From: a phage
Reading direction: 5' to 3' (one strand)
Sequence record: OZ346151.1
DNA: 64,000 bases
The translations under genes and the position numbers were made by a program. The notes under the pieces were generated by a model that had not been told where the DNA came from, searched no databases, and saw only the letters and a program-made list of their open reading frames with translations. Of the stretch, positions 1,524 to 30,638 are shown one piece after another; the first letter of the stretch is position 1, and each line of letters starts with the position of its first letter.

Positions 1524-3947
1524 ATGAGCATGTGGTCGTTCGACTTTGAGTCATCCGGTTTGCTGGAAGACCCAGATCTTTATTATCACTGCGGCCTGTT
1601 TAAAGAGCTGAATAAGAACCGTTTTATGCTGTTCCTTCCTCTAAATGACCGCACACACTACTCCGAGGAGGATATAGAAAAGGCTAAGAACTTCATTCTG
1701 GCAAAGAAAACTCTTTATAAAGATTTTGAAGTTCGCATAGCAGATTTTTCAGAGTTGGAAGGTTGGCTTACAGGAAATTCTGACTGGTCACCAACAGCTT
1801 TGAACTGCCATAACTGCTACAGTTATGACTTTATGCTGATGGAAAGATTATCTGGTATTCATTTTGATATGTTCCGTGATCCTAAGTGTATGGGGACTAT
1901 CAACGATCACCAGGTTAACCTGTTTGATACGTTGGCGATGAGCCGAATCTTGTGGCCTGATCGCCCTTTACCAAAAGGTTGTCCGGACTCTGTATTCAAC
2001 CCGGTTACTAAGAAAATGCAGCCTGTTGGTCCTCACGGCCTTATGGCATGGGGCTACGCCCTTGGTAACCAGAAAGTTCAAATTGATGACTGGCGCGATC
2101 TTCCGTTATGGAAGTATGTGGATCGTGTATTTGAGGACGTTATCATCCAGGAGCTGCTCTGGAAAGAGCTGGTAGCGGAATCAAAAGGTGTATTCTACGG
2201 CAAATCTGACATGCAGAACTTTATGTACGATCCTGCCAAAGAGAAGCCGAAAGGGTTCAAGAAGATCACCTGGAAGAACGCATTACGTCGAGGCATGTTG
2301 CAGCACTTCCTGATGGAGCTGCAGGCCCGTCAGGGTGTATACTTCGACATAGATGGGGCTATTGCTTTACGTGACCGCTGCGATGCGTGGATGAAAGAGA
2401 TCGCTGATCGTGTTGAACCACAACTGCCTTTAAAAGAGCTGTCAATGTCTCAGCGGCCCAAGTTCCCTGAAAAGCCGTTTAACCAAGATGGGACAATCTC
2501 TAATAATGGTTGGAAATGGTTAAAAGATAAGCTTGGCTATCCTGTGGACATGAGTGCTTTAGAGTTCAAAGCCCCACCTAAGCGAGCATTTACCTCTACA
2601 GGAGATGTCAGTAAGATGGGGATAAAATGGTGTGAAGAGATGGGCTGCAAAGACCACGATAAGATGGCTGATTTCTTGAGAGGTTATATTAAGGGCACCT
2701 CCACACCACAACCTTTACCTAAAGAGCTGATGGATCAGGCAATAAGCGATCTGCAACAGAAGCGAATGCCTGACTGCAAGATACCTATGAAAATCAGCAA
2801 TCAGGACGACATTAAGCGATACCTGATCAGTGCTGGTTGGCTTCCGACAATGTGGAGAACTAAGGATGTAACTAAGGACAGCAAGAAGAAAGCTCTACCT
2901 GATGCAGATGTTGATGCACGAGTATATGCATACATGGACGAGCTTTTAGAGTCAGAGTATTGTGACCTAATTATCAACTTCTGGAACAAAACTGATGCTA
3001 AGTTTCAGACAACAGTGCACAAGTTCCGAAGCTTTCCTAACTCCGAAAGGATTAAAAAGGAAGTGTTCGGGAAAATACGCAGAAAAGCCAGGGCACTTAT
3101 TACTTCTCCGCAACTGAAAGATACGTTTGGACACCTATGTCCGAATCTTGAAAAATTGAACGGAGAGATGGCTAAAGATATCGTCTTGTGGTTATCATTG
3201 CGAAACCGCAGATCGGTCCTTGATCCAATCAAGGAGGATAAGGTTGATACTGGTCTTCTTAATCACCCACGTTTGAAGATTGACCATAAGCTTCCTGCTA
3301 AAAGCTCTGGATTAACAAACACTTCCCGACAGAAACACAGTATTTGTGCAAACATGCCTAAACCATCTCCTAAAGTGGTTATGGGTAAAGAGATGCGTAG
3401 CTTGTGGGGTGTTCCTCCTGGATACTTTGAGATCGGTATTGACGGGTCCAACTTAGAGCAGCTTATCGGGGCTTGGGGTGCCTTTGAGTTCGACAACGGC
3501 TTGTACTATGATGTTGTAAGTAACGGGGACGCACACCAAAACAATGCTGAGGCATATACAAAAGTAGCAGGCAGAGAGGTGTCTCGTAACGACGGTAAAC
3601 CTATCACGTATGGGGTTATGTACGGGGCACAAAAAGATAAAGTTGCAGATATGCTGGATATCTCCCCAGAGTTGGGGCAAAGGGTGATCGATGCACTTTG
3701 GGATGCCAACCCAGGTCTTAAGGGGCGCAAAGAGGATCTGGAGAAATTCTGGGAAGCAACAGGTAAGAAGTTTATCTACTCTTTTGATGGTCATGCTATC
3801 TGGACCCGATCTAAACACTCTTTACTTAATGCATACCAACAAAATGGCGGCGCATCGTTGTGTGACTTAGTTGGGATACTCATGCACCATCAAATGGTGA
3901 AGCGTGGGTGGTACGATGAAGGTGTTCGTCGTATTATCTATTACCAT
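1524..3947 (+). CDS. DNA polymerase, family A (T7 gp5-like), exon 1
   Basis: SD AAGGAG before ATG 1524; exo motif FDFESSG; pol motif A IGIDGSNLEQ; motif B KPITYGVMYG; ORF stops right after ...IIYYH, i.e. before motif C. Confidence 0.85.
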
Positions 3948-4789
3948 AAATAACATTGTGGCTTCGTGCAGTGATGCACGTCGAAAACCTCTTTAATTGA
4001 CGGGAAGGCTAAGTTGACTTTTACACCTAAACATGGTAAAAGCTCAATATGCTAATCCGCAGCGAAGACTAAAGGGGTGTAGTTAAAATGGCTAGATCAG
4101 TTGAGTATCACGGATATACCGTGTTTGATGATGGAACAATACCTTTATCGAAACGTGATCATACAACAATGTTTTGTTTTGATAATGGTCGAGGTTACCT
4201 TTGCGTAACCATGTTCATCGAGGGGAAGCAGTGCACAAAAGGTGTCCACCACTTGGTTGCTGAATGCTTTGTATCAAACCCTGATCCTGAAAGGCTCACA
4301 TGGGTGAACCATAAGGACGGAAACAAATACAACAATGCATACTGGAACCTTGAATGGACCACCCCTGGTGGAAATATCAAACACGCTTATGATAATGACC
4401 TCAGAGTAAGGCCAGTCGGTGAGTATAATGCCAACGCTGTACTGACCGAGGATGAGGTAACGGAGATTTGCGAACTGTTACAAAGTGGTTTACGACAATG
4501 CGAGATTAGGGATCTTGGGTATCCTTATGAGACGGTCAGAGCCATAAAGCAAAGAAGACAGTGGAAACATATCTCTAAAAACTACACCTGGTAGTAACGT
4601 TCAGAGACTATCGAAAGCATAGCGCCAACATAAATTGGTGCGAAGAAGCGAGTAGAGTAGACCAGCAAGTGCGGTCGAAATGGGAGGTGCCTTGGTAACA
4701 AGGTAGTGAGATAGTCCGATCCATACAGGAAACTGTATGGCTGTGCACGTAATGGTGCGGGGTAGCTTAACGACCTACCTGAACTATTG
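3948..4789 (+). mobile_element. putative group I self-splicing intron in DNA polymerase gene, carrying HNH homing endonuclease ORF
   Basis: Exon 1 ends ...YYH after a U (3947); downstream frame resumes DEYQLQV...GRNWGDCH, restoring motif C (YHDE) and the family A C-terminus; possible P1 pairing exon CCAU with intron GUGG (3958-3961); G at 4789 precedes exon 2; boundaries +/- a few nt. Confidence 0.65.
4088..4594 (+). CDS. HNH homing endonuclease (intron-encoded)
   Basis: HNH motif ...VNHKDGNKYNNAYWNLEWTTPGGNIKH; own start and stop inside the polymerase interruption. Confidence 0.8.
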   Translation: MARSVEYHGYTVFDDGTIPLSKRDHTTMFCFDNGRGYLCVTMFIEGKQCTKGVHHLVAECFVSNPDPERLTWVNHKDGNKYNNAYWNLEWTTPGGNIKHAYDNDLRVRPVGEYNANAVLTEDEVTEICELLQSGLRQCEIRDLGYPYETVRAIKQRRQWKHISKNYTW

Positions 4790-5143
4790 GATGAGTACCA
4801 ACTTCAAGTCCCTGACACACCGAAGTATAAGACTGTGTACACCTTCGACACAATCGAAGAACTGGAAGCATTTAAGGCAGAGCAGGAGGCCAAACTTCAT
4901 GTGTTCGACGGTCATAAGTACAAAAAGGCACGCAAGGATGAGGACGGAAACGAAGTGGTTGACAGAGACGGAAACACGGTGTACGATCCTATCCTGAACG
5001 ATGACGGAAAGCTTGAACTTATCTGGAGCCCTGTGGGTGAAATGGTGGTGCATTGCTTCTGGCAAGCTTCTAAAATGATGGGCGTCCCGTTCCAGATCAC
5101 GGGTGAATACCTGTGTGGTCGTAATTGGGGTGATTGTCACTAA
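4790..5143 (+). CDS. DNA polymerase, family A, exon 2 (motif C and C-terminus)
   Basis: Begins DEYQLQV; ends GRNWGDCH, resembling the T7 DNA polymerase C-terminus as remembered. Confidence 0.7.
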   Translation, partial: DEYQLQVPDTPKYKTVYTFDTIEELEAFKAEQEAKLHVFDGHKYKKARKDEDGNEVVDRDGNTVYDPILNDDGKLELIWSPVGEMVVHCFWQASKMMGVPFQITGEYLCGRNWGDCH

Positions 5144-5192
5144 TGTAAACTATCAACACATGGAAGTGTTGTTGAGCAAAGAGGAGACTTTT

Positions 5193-5477
5193 ATGGTAGT
5201 AGAACCAACAAAAACATTTACATCCATGACTATCCCTGTTATTATGCAGGTGGAGTGTGTTCAGGTATCTCAAGTGTGGCCTGGCACCAAAATCCCGACA
5301 GGGCCTGATTTCTTTCAGGTTGGCAAAGTGTACAATGTCTGGAAGGCACCAGATTGTTACCCTTTCATCAAAGATGACCGTGGGATGCTGTGGTATCTTG
5401 GAAATGATTTGACACTGCACCTTGGGAATGCTATTATTGCAGTATTCAGACTTAACAAGAAGGAGACTGATCAATGA
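5193..5477 (+). CDS. hypothetical protein
   Basis: SD GAGGAG before ATG 5193; strand-consistent ORF. Confidence 0.5.
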   Translation: MVVEPTKTFTSMTIPVIMQVECVQVSQVWPGTKIPTGPDFFQVGKVYNVWKAPDCYPFIKDDRGMLWYLGNDLTLHLGNAIIAVFRLNKKETDQ

Positions 5478-5701
5478 CGACTTTGGTTAAAGCTACCTTT
5501 GTAGAAGAAAAGATGACAGACCTGTCATTCTTTAAAGAAGGAAAGACCTACGAGGTTTATTACGATAAAGCTCGTGCAAATAAAATGATTAAAGACGAGG
5601 AAGGGGTTGCCTGGTTTATCTCCCATCTGGCAAACGGTGAGTATCATATCTACGGAACCACCCTGCTTGCCAAGTTTGTAGCTGTTGAAGAGGACCTATG
5701 A
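5474..5701 (+). CDS. hypothetical protein
   Basis: SD AGGAG before ATG; start overlaps upstream stop (ATGA). Confidence 0.55.
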   Translation: MTTLVKATFVEEKMTDLSFFKEGKTYEVYYDKARANKMIKDEEGVAWFISHLANGEYHIYGTTLLAKFVAVEEDL

Positions 5702-5892
5702 AAGTAAAGTATCTGGCTGAGGGTATGAGTAGGTATTTCACCCTTGGTGAAGAATATTGGCCATTTACAAGCAACGGCGATGTCTACGTGAAAGATAATT
5801 TCGGCACGCCATGGTTTTTGCACCCTAACGGGTTAGGGTATTCTATTTATCGCAGTGCAATGAGCGACACAACCCTTGCAGAGTTTGTATAG
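5698..5892 (+). CDS. hypothetical protein
   Basis: SD GAAGAGGA before ATG; coupled to upstream gene. Confidence 0.5.
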   Translation: MKVKYLAEGMSRYFTLGEEYWPFTSNGDVYVKDNFGTPWFLHPNGLGYSIYRSAMSDTTLAEFV

Positions 5893-19241: not shown

Positions 19242-19541
19242 ATGTTTATCCAGGCTAATAATCTTTATTTCTTTGATGGTCAGATCGTAGATGGTGTGGA
19301 AGTGGAGATCACTGGGTGCCCTGGTGGTCAGGCTATGACTTTTCGGAATAATGCCTTTGATGATTCTCATATCGTTATGAGAATGGAAGTTACAAAGCTG
19401 GACGACAAGAAAACGCTCATTGACTATTCCGTGAAAGATCATCCAGACTACCACATGATCTATGGTGATTTGTGCATTGTTGACCGTGACAAGGTGGGCG
19501 GCATTGTGATCGCTATTGTGAACGATGTTTTCTCTGTATAG
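19242..19541 (+). CDS. hypothetical protein
   Basis: SD AAGGAG 8 nt before ATG 19242. Confidence 0.5.
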   Translation: MFIQANNLYFFDGQIVDGVEVEITGCPGGQAMTFRNNAFDDSHIVMRMEVTKLDDKKTLIDYSVKDHPDYHMIYGDLCIVDRDKVGGIVIAIVNDVFSV

Positions 19542-20949: not shown

Positions 20950-22980
20950 AGCCGCCAGATCTCAGAATTTACGTACGCTCACCAGTCTATAGCCTGCTAA
21001 GTATTTATTCCAACCATAGAATAACGGAATAGTCAATACCTGCATAAAATAATTATTCGTGTAAACTGCATAACATAAATCGGCTAGGATGTCAACATTT
21101 TTCGTAAACAGCTCGAAATTATAACGGTGAGTTATAATAAACAGAGAAATCTTTAGTCGTCTAATGTTTACTGTACATTACTATACTGACTGGAATCATT
21201 AGATGACTAAGAGAAAGATAAGAAATCATTAACAATGCAATTGTTTTATTCGTAACAATAAGGCAACTATGCAAACGGATGGCATGGCGCGACGGAGTCG
21301 CGACATAATATAAAAGCAGTAACCATCACCCCCGTGATAGTTTGTCTGCAAACTATTAATCAGATCATAGTTGCCTTGTATTTAGTTAATCATGACATAA
21401 CAAGCAAGGCAACTATAGATCTGCTAATAGTTGCCCTGCTTTTATATTATGTCATAGATTATTAGCCTGTTAATTGTTAGTCAGTCAAATCAACAACGTT
21501 ATCATTTCAGTCTTTATTGTTGTTGATCGTTATTGTTATCATGCAAACGAATGGCATGGCTTATCATTTTTGAGTAAACAATCTATACGTGAACAGTGAG
21601 GCATGCAATAGTAAGGGCGGGAATAATGAGAGTGTAAACTGTCAAGGGTAATGTCAATTATATCAATCGTGTCAGTTATGTCACCATTATGTCAGCAGAG
21701 TTTTTCTCCTCTTTGTCAAGTGCTGCATGCCCACACAAATAGTAAGAAATATAATTGTTATGTGCGTAAACAGTAACTCATGTTATCAATCCCTGTATGT
21801 ATCGCCAGTGGTGCGCATAATGGGTATTATGTTAAATTGCCCGTAATGATAATGGTTCTCACAATGATAGGTATTCTCATTCCCCCACACAAAATAGATT
21901 GCAAATGTTGTGCCACTATGTGAACGGCCTCACCTATTAATTTGCCTCACTGCCTCGATATTTGAGAATTATCATAAGAATGAGAAGTATTCCCATTTCG
22001 TCCGCCTGGCAGCACTCCAGTCGCTACGGCTCAGAACAGGGCAGAATTGTGTCCATTCAGATATTTCTGTCTGGCTCTTCAGGTCTGTGTGGGAAAAGTC
22101 CACCTCTCTGGCGGGGCATGGGGTCATGACGGGAAAATTGCAGGTCAATTAAAAAATTTACGTGGTGTATGAAGCGCTCTTCAGGTAAGGCATGTATTAT
22201 GGGATGAAACCCTCTTCAGGCAATGATATTTGTGGGTGTGATATTTGCTGGAAAGCCAGATATGACGGGACTCCCGGCGGGGCAGGGGTAGTACAGACAG
22301 GGGAAATATGGAGGATGTGGTTAGGTGAATTGATCAGACAGGTAGAGTATGGAATATGTTACAGGTATGTTAAATAGGGCGGCTGAATATCTGTAGGATT
22401 TGTGTGTAAAATCAAAGACTTAAGTGGTGTTGTGGTATTTTCTATAAATAATTCAAGTTTAATAGGTAATATTTGTCTCTATTCGCTTTGTGTGGTAAAC
22501 AGATTCAGATGAGATTGGTTTACAAGCGTATACATAATATACAAATTAAAGATACAAGAAACCCCCCTCCCCCTTCGGCTACCATTCACCTTTTCCTCTG
22601 ACTGGTACTTAAACACTTATTCAGACTCTTCAGGTTATCACCCATATATCATATGGCAGTGACTGGTGTCCTCCGGCCCCTCTTTCGTCACCCGTCCGCT
22701 TCGCCATGCTAATGCCATAGCCAATGGTTCGGTTGTTCACCCTGTTCACTCAGGTGTATCTCCATACCCCTTCAAAACGAAGAGAACAGAAAACCCGAAT
22801 TACTCGGTAAAAGAAAAGAGAAGAACTTAATTTTATCAGGATAGGCAAGAATGTCAAGGCATGACTGCTCACTAAACAAGCAAACAGTCATGTGTGGGAG
22901 GTAAGTGATTGTGGTGGTAGGAAATTTAGTTGAAAGATGTGTTATAGGTGCTTCCAGCACTTTAGCCGGGCAGCTAATTG
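20950..22980. repeat. ~2 kb non-coding, repeat-rich zone at the convergence of the plus and minus transcription blocks
   Basis: No RBS-supported ORFs; 20-bp near-identical repeat ATGCAAACG(G/A)ATGGCATGGC at 21268 and 21540; AAGGCAACTAT/ATAGTTGCC inverted copies 21258-21440; clustered TGTCA and CTCTTCAGG repeats. Confidence 0.6.
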
Positions 22981-26982: not shown

Positions 26983-27378
26983 TTACTGAAACAGTGCGGA
27001 TAAATTACCTTCTGGTGGGAACTTATCTGCCAAAAACGGTGTTAGCACAGTAGCCTTCTGAAGATCTGGGGTCCACTCGTTGTTCAGAACATCCCAGTAG
27101 TACGCAATGTTGCTGTGTGGGTGCCGCATTACGAACTTTTTCCCTTCGTAGTCGTCTGAAACCTCTACAGAAGAAATAACAACAGAATCTTCAAGGGTTT
27201 CTTCATAGAAAGATCCCCCTTCAAATTTCCAACGAGATGCAAGAGCCCCTGCCTTGAACGCTGCAGATAACGGACTGTCGGCAAGAACATACATTTCTTG
27301 CACTCTGTCGCTGCGATCTTTGCTTCTTACGTTGTATACAGTATCTGAGCTATACTCAACACGGTATAGGCTTACCAT
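26983..27378 (-). CDS. hypothetical protein (paralog of 29190-29588)
   Basis: Shares HP(H/D)S...YYW(D/N)...W(T)P...TPF(L/A)(A/D) with 29190-29588. Confidence 0.55.
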   Translation of the reverse strand: MVSLYRVEYSSDTVYNVRSKDRSDRVQEMYVLADSPLSAAFKAGALASRWKFEGGSFYEETLEDSVVISSVEVSDDYEGKKFVMRHPHSNIAYYWDVLNNEWTPDLQKATVLTPFLADKFPPEGNLSALFQ

Positions 27379-27710
27379 TACCGCACCTCCTCAATAACTT
27401 CCACATCTGAACCTACCACAAATGCAAAAGGACAGGTTTCATGAAAGACATCTGGATCGCCGCCAAGCTTGCTAACAATCTCTCCACCACTAATAAACAC
27501 AAGCTCACCGATATTCATCAGATTGCTGAAATAGTACCCATAATGATTAAAGAATGCAGCAGGGTCAGGTAGACTGGTAGCCTCAAGCACTACATCGGTT
27601 GAGGTTACTTTCTTATCATAACCTCTCGCCTTTTGAGATGCAAGATCTGCAGAATCCTCAGGAGACCGGAGATGCACAGGAATTGTTTCACCAATAAAGC
27701 GTACTTTCAT
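27378..27710 (-). CDS. small acidic protein, tandem paralog family
   Basis: Start moved to internal MKVRFIGE (avoids overlap); C-terminus VEVIEEVR. Confidence 0.5.
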   Translation of the reverse strand: MKVRFIGETIPVHLRSPEDSADLASQKARGYDKKVTSTDVVLEATSLPDPAAFFNHYGYYFSNLMNIGELVFISGGEIVSKLGGDPDVFHETCPFAFVVGSDVEVIEEVR

Positions 27711-27714
27711 ATTA

Positions 27715-27978
27715 TCACCCAACAACCATAGCTTCAAAAGGAGTCATGAACGAATAAACGGCATCATCATCTGCTTCAGGGAATGCTCCCAAAGACTTCA
27801 TATCTGAACCCTTGACAAATACAAGGTTTTGATCAAAGGCTTCTTGGGGGTCAATCCGATACATATTTCGTAGAATATCGCTTACCTCCTCATCAAGAGG
27901 TGAGTATGCTGTGCACGTTTTTCCGATCAAGCTTTGAGAATCAGGGTATCCACCTGAAGTTTTAAAATAAACAATCAT
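27715..27978 (-). CDS. small acidic protein, tandem paralog family
   Basis: Contains LVFVKGSDMKSLGAF core shared with paralogs. Confidence 0.55.
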   Translation of the reverse strand: MIVYFKTSGGYPDSQSLIGKTCTAYSPLDEEVSDILRNMYRIDPQEAFDQNLVFVKGSDMKSLGAFPEADDDAVYSFMTPFEAMVVG

Positions 27979-28069
27979 ATAGTATCACCTCTGGTAAGAG
28001 ATTGGGATTCCTTTCCCACAAATAATTACAAATCTTCCTTATCGAGGAAGTATGCTAATCCAAGCAGGA

Positions 28070-28339
28070 TTATTCCTCTACAATCTCATACACATCAGGA
28101 GTTACAATCAACTCTTCTCCGTTACCCGGTGCAACAAACACCACCAAACCTTCAGGTGTGTGCTTTTTAGCCATCTCGATAACATCTTCTCGCAGAGCTG
28201 GCTCCATCAGATCAAAACCTTCACCCAGGGCATCACGAACCACCTTCATATAGTCAACTGGTTGTGCTTCAACAATCATGCCTTCAACCAGTCCACAGTT
28301 TTTGTCTGCCAGCTCAGTTTTGAATAATTTAATTTTCAT
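28070..28339 (-). CDS. small acidic protein, tandem paralog family
   Basis: MKIKLFKTEL start; C-terminus YEIVEE. Confidence 0.55.
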   Translation of the reverse strand: MKIKLFKTELADKNCGLVEGMIVEAQPVDYMKVVRDALGEGFDLMEPALREDVIEMAKKHTPEGLVVFVAPGNGEELIVTPDVYEIVEE

Positions 28340-28476
28340 TTAGAGGTCTCCTCAATTATTTGATATTAATAGCCGTAACCTAACACATTAACTACAACTG
28401 CGATTGCAAACATAATTTCAAAGCATGCAATCTCTACATTTGGGACTAATTTCTTAATCACACCCATTGTAGCACC

Positions 28477-28797
28477 TCATTCTCCAAAGTCAATCTTTAC
28501 TTTGCCTTTCCCCTTACCTTTCTTTCCACCGCATTTAGCCAGCTGACGTGCTGCAACATCTACCATACGGTCAGTTGCCTCGTAAGCATCACTGCCTTTA
28601 GCCTTGGCAATAACTTCTTTTCCAGAATTGTCAAAAATGAACGCCATAACTTCCTGGTGATCATTTTCAACTTTTACACTTACACGTGCATAGTTAACAG
28701 AGGGATGTAAACGCTCCAGCTTGGACATTTTGCGGGAAATAAAAGATACCATACCTTCTGTGATTTCTACATTGTTGCCAGTGATTTCAATTTGCAT
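28477..28797 (-). CDS. hpf: ribosome hibernation promoting factor / YfiA (RaiA) family homolog
   Basis: N-terminus MQIEITGNNVEITEGM... closely matches E. coli HPF MQLNITGNNVEITEAL (from memory); size ~106 aa; basic C-terminal tail. Confidence 0.7.
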   Translation of the reverse strand: MQIEITGNNVEITEGMVSFISRKMSKLERLHPSVNYARVSVKVENDHQEVMAFIFDNSGKEVIAKAKGSDAYEATDRMVDVAARQLAKCGGKKGKGKGKVKIDFGE

Positions 28798-28845
28798 AAC
28801 GTGTTCCTTTTAAGGAAGAGGGAATAACTATCTCTCTTTGAAAAC

Positions 28846-28875
28846 AATGATACTAAATCTGAAGCGTTGTGTCAA
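28846..28875 (-). promoter_or_regulatory. possible sigma70-like promoter (minus strand) upstream of hpf
   Basis: Minus-strand TTGACA; -10 assignment weak. Confidence 0.35.
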
Positions 28876-28881
28876 CAGTTT

Positions 28882-29172
28882 TTACAGCTTGTTGTCGATA
28901 GTTTTTAAAATATCCACAGCAAGATCTGCCATTTTTCGAACATACTCTGCAAACTCAACAGGATCCTTGATCAAAGAATTCACAGGGTCGTACCCTAGAG
29001 CGTTTAAAATGGCTGCAGCATCTACAACCTTCTCATCATTTGCGAAGATCTCTCCGTCAAACTTGTAGGTCCATTTTGAGTCAACCTTAGCAGAGCAGGG
29101 TTTGTCCATGCTTGTTACACCATCGTCTTTAAACTCTCCTGCGTTATCAATATTTAGAATTAAATCCATCAT
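28882..29172 (-). CDS. hypothetical protein
   Basis: Strand-consistent ORF. Confidence 0.5.
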   Translation of the reverse strand: MMDLILNIDNAGEFKDDGVTSMDKPCSAKVDSKWTYKFDGEIFANDEKVVDAAAILNALGYDPVNSLIKDPVEFAEYVRKMADLAVDILKTIDNKL

Positions 29173-29189
29173 GGTGACACCTCACTGTT

Positions 29190-29588
29190 TCAGTTTAGCT
29201 TTTCTTCAACAACCCCATAACTTGGGGCAGAGTCAAGAGCTTTCTGGTTTAAAAGTGGCGTAGCAGAATCTGCAAACGGTGTCCAAGTTTTTGTTCTGGA
29301 ATTCCAGTAATGCTTCACTCTGGAATCTGGATGCACTATAACAAAAACTTTTTCACTTGTCAACACATTAATTTCTTCTACACCCTTGCTGATAATTTCT
29401 CCGTCATAGCCCCCAGTCTGGTATCCTTCGTACCAGGTTCTTGCATAGGCATAGCCAGCCTGCCAGCATGCAGCCTCCTCCGAGGTGGAGACTACGTAGA
29501 AGTCTTTCTCAAATTCCGGAATACGCCCTTGCTTTACGCTCCAAGCTCCGCGAATTTTCATTGTTACTTTGAAAAGCTTGTTCTTCAT
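29190..29588 (-). CDS. hypothetical protein (paralog of 26983-27378)
   Basis: KVFVIVHPDSRVKHYWNSRTKTWTPF similar to KKFVMRHPHSNIAYYWDVLNNEWTP. Confidence 0.55.
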   Translation of the reverse strand: MKNKLFKVTMKIRGAWSVKQGRIPEFEKDFYVVSTSEEAACWQAGYAYARTWYEGYQTGGYDGEIISKGVEEINVLTSEKVFVIVHPDSRVKHYWNSRTKTWTPFADSATPLLNQKALDSAPSYGVVEEKLN

Positions 29589-29589
29589 A

Positions 29590-29844
29590 CTACCGCTCTA
29601 CAATCTCTACGTCTGTTCCTACACCGAAGGCATAGTAATGTTCTTCCCCAAAGTAATACTTGGGGACACCCGCTTTGATCAGATCTAACCCGCGAATAAA
29701 TACCACACCGTGTGATACAGTGGAATGCTTCTGACGCACAGGATCGTTGTCAGGCAACCATTCAAAGTACACCGCAGGTACAACCTTTCCCTTCAGGAAG
29801 GATTGTCCCAAGTAGACGTTAGAATCAAGAATTTTAACCTTCAT
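29590..29844 (-). CDS. small acidic protein, tandem paralog family
   Basis: MKVKILDSNVYLGQ...GKVV...IRGLDLIKAG...VEIVER. Confidence 0.6.
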   Translation of the reverse strand: MKVKILDSNVYLGQSFLKGKVVPAVYFEWLPDNDPVRQKHSTVSHGVVFIRGLDLIKAGVPKYYFGEEHYYAFGVGTDVEIVER

Positions 29845-30061
29845 TCTCGTCCTCCACTATCTCTGCATCCTCACCAAGGGCAAAGTTGTAGGTCCACTGG
29901 CTGTCAAAGCAGTCCTGAGATGCACCAGCGGCAATAAGATCTGCACCTTTTATTTTTAAAAGGTCAGGATAATCTTCGTTAGGGATAGCGGTAAACACTT
30001 TCCCCACTAAGGGCTCCTGACCAATATAGAAGCTTGAATCTAAAACTTTAACTTTCATCAA
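29834..30061 (-). CDS. small acidic protein, tandem paralog family
   Basis: MMKVKVLDSSFYIGQ...GKVF...IKGADLIAAG...AEIVEDENEG. Confidence 0.6.
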   Translation of the reverse strand: MMKVKVLDSSFYIGQEPLVGKVFTAIPNEDYPDLLKIKGADLIAAGASQDCFDSQWTYNFALGEDAEIVEDENEG

Positions 30062-30345
30062 CGGTCTCCCTCAGGCGGTTGTGGGACGTAAACACTGTTA
30101 CGAATATCGTCAGCAGTGTAGTAATAAGTGGTTCCAACCCTATCTCGGGCTGCAATGTACTCTGCTATACCAACAAGTGCCATTGATTTGGTGGCGTATC
30201 TTCCCCACTCGTTAGCTCCCCAGTAGAATTTAGACCAGTAGGGAATAAGACCGAACAAATATACCTTTTGACGAACTTCCCAGTAAGTGCCTTTTCCGAC
30301 AAGTTTAAACTCTACTTCACTACTGTTAATCTTTTTCATTATCAA
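30058..30345 (-). CDS. hypothetical protein
   Basis: Strand-consistent ORF. Confidence 0.5.
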   Translation of the reverse strand: MIMKKINSSEVEFKLVGKGTYWEVRQKVYLFGLIPYWSKFYWGANEWGRYATKSMALVGIAEYIAARDRVGTTYYYTADDIRNSVYVPQPPEGDR

Positions 30346-30638
30346 TCTCCCTCTACCGTGGTCGGATTGTCAGTAAGAAATTGAGCATTGGCTGGAGGCA
30401 CGCCTGACATTTTCCACACAACCATAAGTTTATAACCAGGCACTCTATTAAGTGCAGATCGAGTAGAGTTTGTGCACGTATACTTTCGCTTTCCAAACCC
30501 GTTCTCCATCATAATCCAGTACCCAGTATCTTTGTCACCAGGTATCGGTAGACCACCTTCATCAACCCACTGAATTGACCACGGCACGATGGCTACAGCT
30601 TTATATTTAAACTTTTTAAACCACTCAAAAAGTTTCAT
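30342..30638 (-). CDS. hypothetical protein
   Basis: Strand-consistent ORF. Confidence 0.5.
   Translation of the reverse strand: MKLFEWFKKFKYKAVAIVPWSIQWVDEGGLPIPGDKDTGYWIMMENGFGKRKYTCTNSTRSALNRVPGYKLMVVWKMSGVPPANAQFLTDNPTTVEGD

Follow-up and report, generated by a model that had tools for sequence, protein, structure and literature searches.

The window analysed here (the whole 64,000-nucleotide stretch of sequence record OZ346151.1) comes from the genome of an rV5-like Vequintavirus. On its minus strand it carries an ORF of 106 amino acids encoding a diverged member of the HPF/RaiA (Ribosomal_S30AE) family. The positions of the gene, its parts and the surrounding features are listed in Table 1. 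An earlier note, made from the sequence alone, had described this ORF as a phage-encoded homolog of the ribosome hibernation factor HPF/YfiA. The ORF is present with an ATG start, its translation is identical to the quoted product (MQIEITGNNVEITEGMVSFISRKMSKLERL), and the genome is indeed that of a phage.

The promoter, ribosome-binding site and neighbouring genes

The TTGACA that had been noticed just upstream of the ORF was found on the minus strand as part of a sigma-70-type promoter lying ~50 nt 5' of the start codon. In the record of phage rV5 (DQ832317), a feature annotated as “Sigma70-type promoter; P144” occupies the same relative position. The total number of promoter-like sites across the region did not exceed the expectation from shuffled sequences, so the case for a function of P144 rests on the quality of the match, its position and the rV5 annotation. 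The record of phage Murica has an annotated ribosome-binding site where the window has the Shine-Dalgarno-like AAGGA. The strongly hydrophobic 33-amino acid ORF that follows the HPF-like gene, and is probably co-transcribed with it, is annotated in rV5, Murica and the BASEL phage MaxBurger (rV5 ORF145, Murica133 and bas54_0154). It is missing from a second phage lineage, described below, in which the HPF-like protein is 64% identical to that of the window and the gene is followed by a gap of only 84 nt.

Table 1. Features of the HPF-like gene and its surroundings (positions in the window).
Feature	Position	Strand	Basis or remark
HPF-like ORF, 106 aa, ATG start	28477..28797	-	Translation MQIEITGNNVEITEGMVSFISRKMSKLERLHPSVNYARVSVKVENDHQEVMAFIFDNSGKEVIAKAKGSDAYEATDRMVDVAARQLAKCGGKKGKGKGKVKIDFGE
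Sigma-70-type promoter (TTGACA, 17-nt spacer, TATCAT)	28847..28875	-	11/12 consensus positions; corresponds to rV5 P144
TTGACA element	28875..28870	-
TATCAT element	28852..28847	-
Shine-Dalgarno-like AAGGA	28805..28809	-	7 nt 5' of the HPF ATG; read from the sequence
HPF folded core	28525..28797	-	PF02482 (residues 3-89); AF2 pLDDT ~90; Foldseek 4hei and 6h4n_x, rmsd 1.0 Å
Asn-Asn codons 8-9	28771-28776	-	As in E. coli HPF
Lys/Gly-rich C-terminal tail, residues 92-106 (KKGKGKGKVKIDFGE)	28480..28524	-	Predicted disordered (pLDDT 35-41); net charge +4
AAGGGGAAAGG run in the tail-coding region	28495-28510	-	Frameshifted in Murica and APCEc02
HPF stop codon TGA	28477..28479	-	Sequence
33-aa strongly hydrophobic ORF (MGVIKKLVPNVEIACFEIMFAIAVVVNVLGYGY)	28366..28467	-	Starts 9 nt past the HPF stop; translation
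89-aa acidic ORF 3' of HPF	28070-28339	-	No Pfam match, no similarity to HPF
Small paralog-set ORF	26983-27378	-	BLASTP
Small paralog-set ORF	27378-27737	-	BLASTP
Small paralog-set ORF	29190-29588	-	BLASTP
Small paralog-set ORF	29590-29844	-	BLASTP
Small paralog-set ORF	29834-30061	-	BLASTP

The HPF-like gene belongs to a long series of small, functionally uncharacterized genes, all in the same orientation, downstream of genes for a ribonucleotide reductase, a PhoH-like protein, a ClpP-like protein and a methyltransferase (according to the annotation of MaxBurger, the HPF-like protein of which is 100% identical to that of the window). The earlier note placed the gene in a small acidic paralog cluster. 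This description holds insofar as most of the neighbouring products are acidic (pI 4.0-4.8) and a few are mutually paralogous: the 131- and 132-amino acid neighbours are 28% identical (E = 6e-10), and the 84- and 75-amino acid neighbours are 41% identical (E = 1.5e-15), both of the latter resembling the C-terminus of a 119-amino acid protein. None of them is related to HPF, however. An HPF-derived origin of the acidic neighbours, an idea prompted by the start of one of them (MKVEITGFDV) and by the name “sigma 54 modulation factor” given to the 89-amino acid ORF, was rejected, as a Pfam search of 10 neighbours gave no match for any of them and BLASTP revealed no match to HPF. The label in question is attached to the 89-amino acid ORF in the records of phages nomo and APCEc02, and looks like a propagated annotation error. 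As for the HPF-like gene, several phage records call it “ATP-dependent protease La type I”.

Searches of the window yielded no second S30AE gene and no tRNA or tmRNA genes, and no Rfam families were found between positions 19500 and 30000. A segment of about 2 kb (~20950-22980) between two convergently oriented gene blocks is devoid of ORFs of more than ~80 amino acids; GC content falls to 0.34-0.37 at 21000-22000, and the segment contains the peak of the cumulative GC skew. Its counterpart is unannotated in MaxBurger, and it gave no tRNA or Rfam match in the window. In MaxBurger, the upstream gene for the class III anaerobic ribonucleotide reductase is annotated as two joined pieces, split by a putative homing endonuclease gene (3116-5823 of the stretch examined).

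Family membership, fold and rRNA-contact residues

Profile, sequence and structure comparisons all placed the protein in the Ribosomal_S30AE family. It matched PF02482 with a score of 56.7 bits (GA 23.7; E = 4e-15), residues 3-89 aligning with positions 1-83 of the 88 in the model, and also scored above the threshold of TIGR00741 (NCBIfam yfiA; 56.8 bits, cut-off 40.9). The best PDB sequence matches obtained with phmmer were the E. coli HPF chains (2rql, 4v8h and 6h4n; E ~4e-15, residues 1-90), and BLASTP gave 44% identity to E. coli HPF over 88 amino acids (E = 1.3e-21), versus 25% identity to E. coli RaiA. The N-terminal likeness to E. coli HPF (MQLNITGNNVEITEAL) on which the earlier note was based is therefore real; it extends over residues 1-90, far beyond chance. 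That note had named the lack of a significant family hit, or of a full-length alignment behind the N-terminal match, as results that would speak against homology; what we found were scores above the curated cut-offs and an alignment with E. coli HPF across the entire folded domain.

The same function can be assumed for proteins that pass the cut-off of an equivalog model. The phage protein scored below the cut-off for both the enterobacterial short-HPF equivalog NF007780 (65.2 bits, cut-off 125) and the RaiA/YfiA equivalog NF007654 (22.8 bits, cut-off 158). Judged by sequence, the HPF-like core is nearer to short HPF than to RaiA, and the low score obtained with the RaiA equivalog indicates that the RefSeq product name “RaiA” is generic rather than specific. 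The protein also matched, over its full length, the profile of PHROG 12469 (Vequintavirus HPF-like; E = 1e-69, 232 bits), with residues 1-106 aligned to positions 1-105 of the 105 in the model.

The structure predicted by AF2 had a mean pLDDT of 82 (~90 over residues 1-90), with strands at residues 2-8, 34-44, 47-56 and 61-68 and helices at residues 14-30 and 71-90. The 35 best Foldseek matches in the PDB were all HPF, RaiA or pY chains, headed by V. cholerae HPF (4hei) and E. coli HPF (6h4n_x), with TM scores of 0.89-0.95 and an rmsd of 1.0 Å, so the model fits solved HPF structures closely.

The basic C-terminal tail recognized in the earlier note corresponds to residues 92-106, which have a pI of 10 (6.1 for the core) and, with pLDDT values below 50, are predicted to be disordered. 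The tail of rV5 is identical to that of the window, and the 64%-identical lineage has a different basic tail, ending K-W-D-Y. In both phage lineages, the short HPF C-terminus is replaced by a longer, basic, disordered tail ending K-[IW]-D-[FY]. A GGGGAAA run within the sequence encoding the tail (Table 1) is the site of a frameshift of -1 in Murica and of +1 in APCEc02, resulting in truncated or altered tails; in all, two or three phage records have a frameshift affecting the end of the tail. These frameshifts reflect either homopolymer sequencing errors or natural variation with a dispensable distal tail.

We assessed the conservation of individual residues in an alignment of 139 diverse representatives of the family, in which a position was considered conserved if one residue occurred at a frequency of at least 50%. 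At 26 of these 38 conserved positions, the phage protein has the family residue, as for K23, K26, R29, D70, Y72, D76, D80, R84, Q85, K88 and K92. According to a cryo-EM preprint (10.1101/2025.10.07.680626), the helix-2 residues K80, R83, K87, K89 and K91 are strictly conserved contacts to 16S rRNA, T53 and residue 62 form an invariant contact to m2G966, and K26 and Q29 make contact near m3U1498. In E. coli numbering, K26, R83, K87 and K91 are retained in the phage protein (as K26, R84, K88 and K92), whereas K80 is replaced by V, K89 by G, T53 by F and the usually basic position 17 by V. Two of the five conserved helix-2 contacts (K80 and K89) are therefore missing, and the beta3-beta4 hairpin contains one extra residue. 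The 64%-identical lineage has the losses at positions 17, 53, 80 and 89 in common, with T at 80, S at 89 and R at 53. As the losses are common to both phage lineages, they are ancestral and fixed, rather than a sign of decay.

Distribution and selection in phages

The 3.5 kb surrounding the gene is 99.5% identical to the corresponding sequence of Escherichia phage nomo and 96-99% identical to those of ~120 rV5-like Vequintavirus phages. A gene product 93-100% identical to the HPF-like protein is present in ~118 phage records, under the names “sigma 54 modulation factor”, “ribosome hibernation promoting factor”, “ribosome hibernation factor” and “RaiA”. When 50,697 phage records were searched with E. 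coli HPF, the matches came almost exclusively from rV5-like phages. Eighteen GenBank records labelled “Campylobacter phage” (MG0656xx, host C. jejuni) are 96-97% identical to positions 27000-30500 of the window and contain this HPF gene as well; mislabelling or contamination of these assemblies is the probable explanation.

The gene is the same as rV5 ORF144 (gp144, ABI79209; PHROG 12469), with the same position and the same promoter, P144. The window allele differs from that of rV5 by the substitutions R22H and V34A and by a 3-nt indel in the beta1-alpha1 loop: it encodes 106 amino acids with Asn8-Asn9, whereas the proteins of rV5 and most of its relatives have 105 amino acids and a single Asn, as does the protein of the 64%-identical lineage. 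In some species, contacts between the beta1-alpha1 loop and 16S rRNA have been reported (10.1101/2025.10.07.680626). The homology recognized in the earlier note is correct, but it had already been annotated and published. Mizuno et al. listed rV5 HPF among virus-encoded ribosomal proteins in 2019 (Nat Commun, PMC6375957), and hpf was noted again in rV5 phages by Mathieu et al. in 2020 (PMC6969025). Our search of the literature on phage HPF after 2019 retrieved only mentions at the level of annotation, with no functional follow-up, and no reports of transcript timing or gene essentiality were found for rV5-like phages.

An exhaustive search of 1.84 billion cluster representatives identified a single cluster of close relatives, represented by a 103-amino acid protein (P0004) that is 64-66% identical to the phage HPF; beyond this cluster, the best match had 44% identity and a score of 55 bits. 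A word-indexed protein search with the phage HPF returned only five proteins, all phage-type, and a related-locus search of viral contigs with P0004 found nothing. The contigs encoding P0004 are 125-137 kb long and display a similar run of small genes, in which the ORFs on either side of HPF have similar sizes and both the position of HPF and the gene order are conserved. This similar run suggests a second, unrecorded vequintavirus-like lineage as the source of P0004. On a 363-kb contig outside the window, we also observed a protein of 1160 amino acids (P0127) in which S30AE-like stretches occur eight times, an unusual HPF architecture of tandem repeats.

Strong purifying selection acts on the phage HPF gene. 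The window and rV5 genes differ by 11 synonymous and two non-synonymous changes (dN/dS ~0.04), and comparison with the 64%-identical lineage gave a pS of 0.83, indicating saturation, and a pN of 0.24. Low dN/dS together with saturated synonymous sites implies that the gene is old in this phage group and has been selectively maintained. Enterobacterial HPFs are 76-100% identical to one another, versus only 37-42% to the phage protein, so the phage copy has diverged far faster than its cellular counterparts. These data bear on the notion that the gene is a functionless passenger recently captured from a host. In favour of this notion, the gene stands alone among phage ORFans as a small gene of clearly cellular origin, and Mizuno et al. 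suggested a relatively recent transfer (PMC6375957). Nevertheless, the low dN/dS, the shared position in two lineages with saturated synonymous sites, the occurrence in 118 phage records, the identity of only 41-44% to any cellular HPF and the possession of its own promoter and ribosome-binding site make such a passenger extremely improbable, and the selection, conservation and divergence data effectively refute this reading.

Possible action on host ribosomes and comparison with known systems

The roles suggested in the earlier note, in which a phage HPF could shut down, reprogram or protect ribosomes, are hypotheses. Mizuno et al. proposed that viral HPF might compete with its cellular homologs, thereby preventing dimer formation (PMC6375957). 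In the only experiment published on the protein, they expressed rV5 HPF in E. coli and detected its peptides in the crude extract, but none in the 70S and 100S fractions of high-salt sucrose gradients, and there was no discernible change in 100S abundance; growth phase, stripping by salt and a genuine loss of binding were considered as possible causes of the negative association result (PMC6375957).

We tentatively favour, at somewhat less than even odds, a RaiA-like capping of idle host ribosomes by this HPF-derived protein. An ancestor of the rV5-like phages would have captured a gammaproteobacterial short-HPF gene, which has been retained since and would be transcribed from its own host-type sigma-70 promoter within the long block of small genes. 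On vacant host 30S subunits or 70S ribosomes, the folded core would, like HPF and RaiA, occupy the tRNA/mRNA channel that separates the head of the small subunit from its body, making contact through the retained residues K26, R84, K88 and K92. The flexible Lys-rich tail would leave helix 2 at its end and follow the path of the mRNA, where RMF is kept out by the RaiA tail. A RaiA-like outcome is predicted: idle ribosomes would be kept as 70S monomers, capped and protected from nucleases, instead of forming 100S dimers with RMF and HPF. As two rRNA-contacting lysines are missing, binding is predicted to be weaker and more reversible than that of host HPF, and ribosomes could thus stay available for phage mRNAs. 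Family membership, fold, purifying selection, the promoter motif and the pattern of kept and lost residues are shown by the data; that the protein binds ribosomes, what its tail does and in which direction physiology is affected are inferred.

RaiA-like capping is compatible with the lack of an effect on 100S particles and with the loss of the protein in a high-salt wash (PMC6375957), and the tail extension of RaiA is described as blocking RMF binding and 100S formation (PMC7764885). Against it stand the loss of K80, K89, T53 and the basic position 17 in both phage lineages, and the absence of rV5 HPF from the high-salt 70S and 100S fractions (PMC6375957). In addition, the tail has no sequence similarity to that of RaiA, and its distal part may be dispensable, given the frameshifts in two or three records.

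The protein might, instead, be a classical hibernation promoter, making 100S dimers together with host RMF and shutting off translation, for example that of the host, or late in infection. Among cellular proteins, short HPFs are more closely related to it than RaiA is, and its fold is essentially identical to that of E. coli HPF in the 100S structure 6h4n. We nonetheless consider this role unlikely, because 100S particles were not visibly affected when rV5 HPF was expressed in E. coli (PMC6375957), no RMF homolog was found in the window (tblastn, best E 5.8, with an E. coli RMF query), the extended tail lies where the RaiA tail is reportedly incompatible with RMF, and a block of all ribosomes driven by an independent sigma-70 promoter would stop phage translation too.

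The loss of several conserved rRNA contacts in both lineages despite strong selection, the very fast divergence (41-44% identity, versus 76-100% among enterobacterial HPFs) and the failure to detect the protein on ribosomes (PMC6375957) could also indicate a scaffold repurposed away from the ribosome, to bind another RNA, a host protein or a small nucleotide, in the manner of the immune-signal sponge Acb4. This anti-CBASS protein of phage SPO1 has been reported to be structurally similar to V. cholerae HPF (4HEI; PMC11722364). Clear sequence homology to HPF has been kept, however, including R83, K87, K91 and K26, and no Acb4 chain occurred among the PDB sequence matches (E≤1) or the 50 best Foldseek matches in the PDB. 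An Acb4-like sponge was accordingly ranked low, having neither a sequence match nor a top-ranking structural match, and we regard a repurposed scaffold as a distinctly unlikely explanation.

The loss of K80, K89 and T53 and the gain of a Lys-rich tail, fixed under strong purifying selection in both phage lineages, suggest a further and rather doubtful reading, in which the protein would be a neofunctionalised HPF acting as an anti-hibernation factor or a ribosome shield or, less probably, off the ribosome on another nucleic-acid or nucleotide ligand. If so, it would compete with host HPF and RaiA and exclude RMF, or shield the decoding centre from defence nucleases, allowing the phage to make use of cells that are in stationary phase or have been arrested by a defence response.

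One route by which viruses control host protein synthesis is through translation factors encoded by phages, and the window gene belongs to the small number of hibernation-factor homologs from cultivated phages. The existence of this gene was already established, and our finding adds nothing categorically new. The combination of strong selection, lost rRNA contacts and a new basic tail nevertheless points to concrete mutants and assays for determining whether the protein promotes, blocks or bypasses hibernation. The question bears on phage infection of non-growing E. coli in the gut and on the therapeutic use of rV5-like phages.

Acb4 of SPO1 (PDB 9E4W) is, like the window protein, a small phage protein (~96 amino acids) resembling HPF, with a dsRBD-like alpha/beta core (PMC11722364), but its topology is different and it is an obligate tetramer. 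Other HPF-like proteins with the S30AE fold, of 110-111 amino acids, are encoded by the jumbo phages GAP32 of Cronobacter (K4F6Q6) and PBECO4 of Escherichia (L7TII8). They are only 18-26% identical to the window protein, belong to a separate PHROG (8990) and appear to represent an independent acquisition; Mizuno et al. grouped the GAP32 protein with Firmicutes-like sequences (PMC6375957).

Among cellular proteins, E. coli RaiA (YfiA, protein Y; 113 amino acids) has the same fold as the phage protein and is likewise extended at its C-terminus past helix 2, but identity is low (25%) and the two tails have no sequence similarity, that of the phage being Lys/Gly-rich. The RaiA tail ends acidic. 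The closer counterpart is E. coli short HPF (YhbH, 95 amino acids; 2rql, 6h4n and 4v8h), which shares the fold (rmsd 1.0 Å) and 44% identity over the whole domain, with an almost identical stretch of 14 residues at the N-terminus. The E. coli residues K23, K26, D69, Y71, D75, D79, R83, Q84, K87 and K91 are kept in the phage protein, whereas K80, K89, T53, H55 and R17 are missing, and the C-terminal DKLKQH of E. coli HPF is replaced by the 15-residue Lys/Gly tail. The genes also differ in context, the E. coli HPF gene belonging to the rpoN operon and that of the phage lying behind a sigma-70 promoter in the phage genome.
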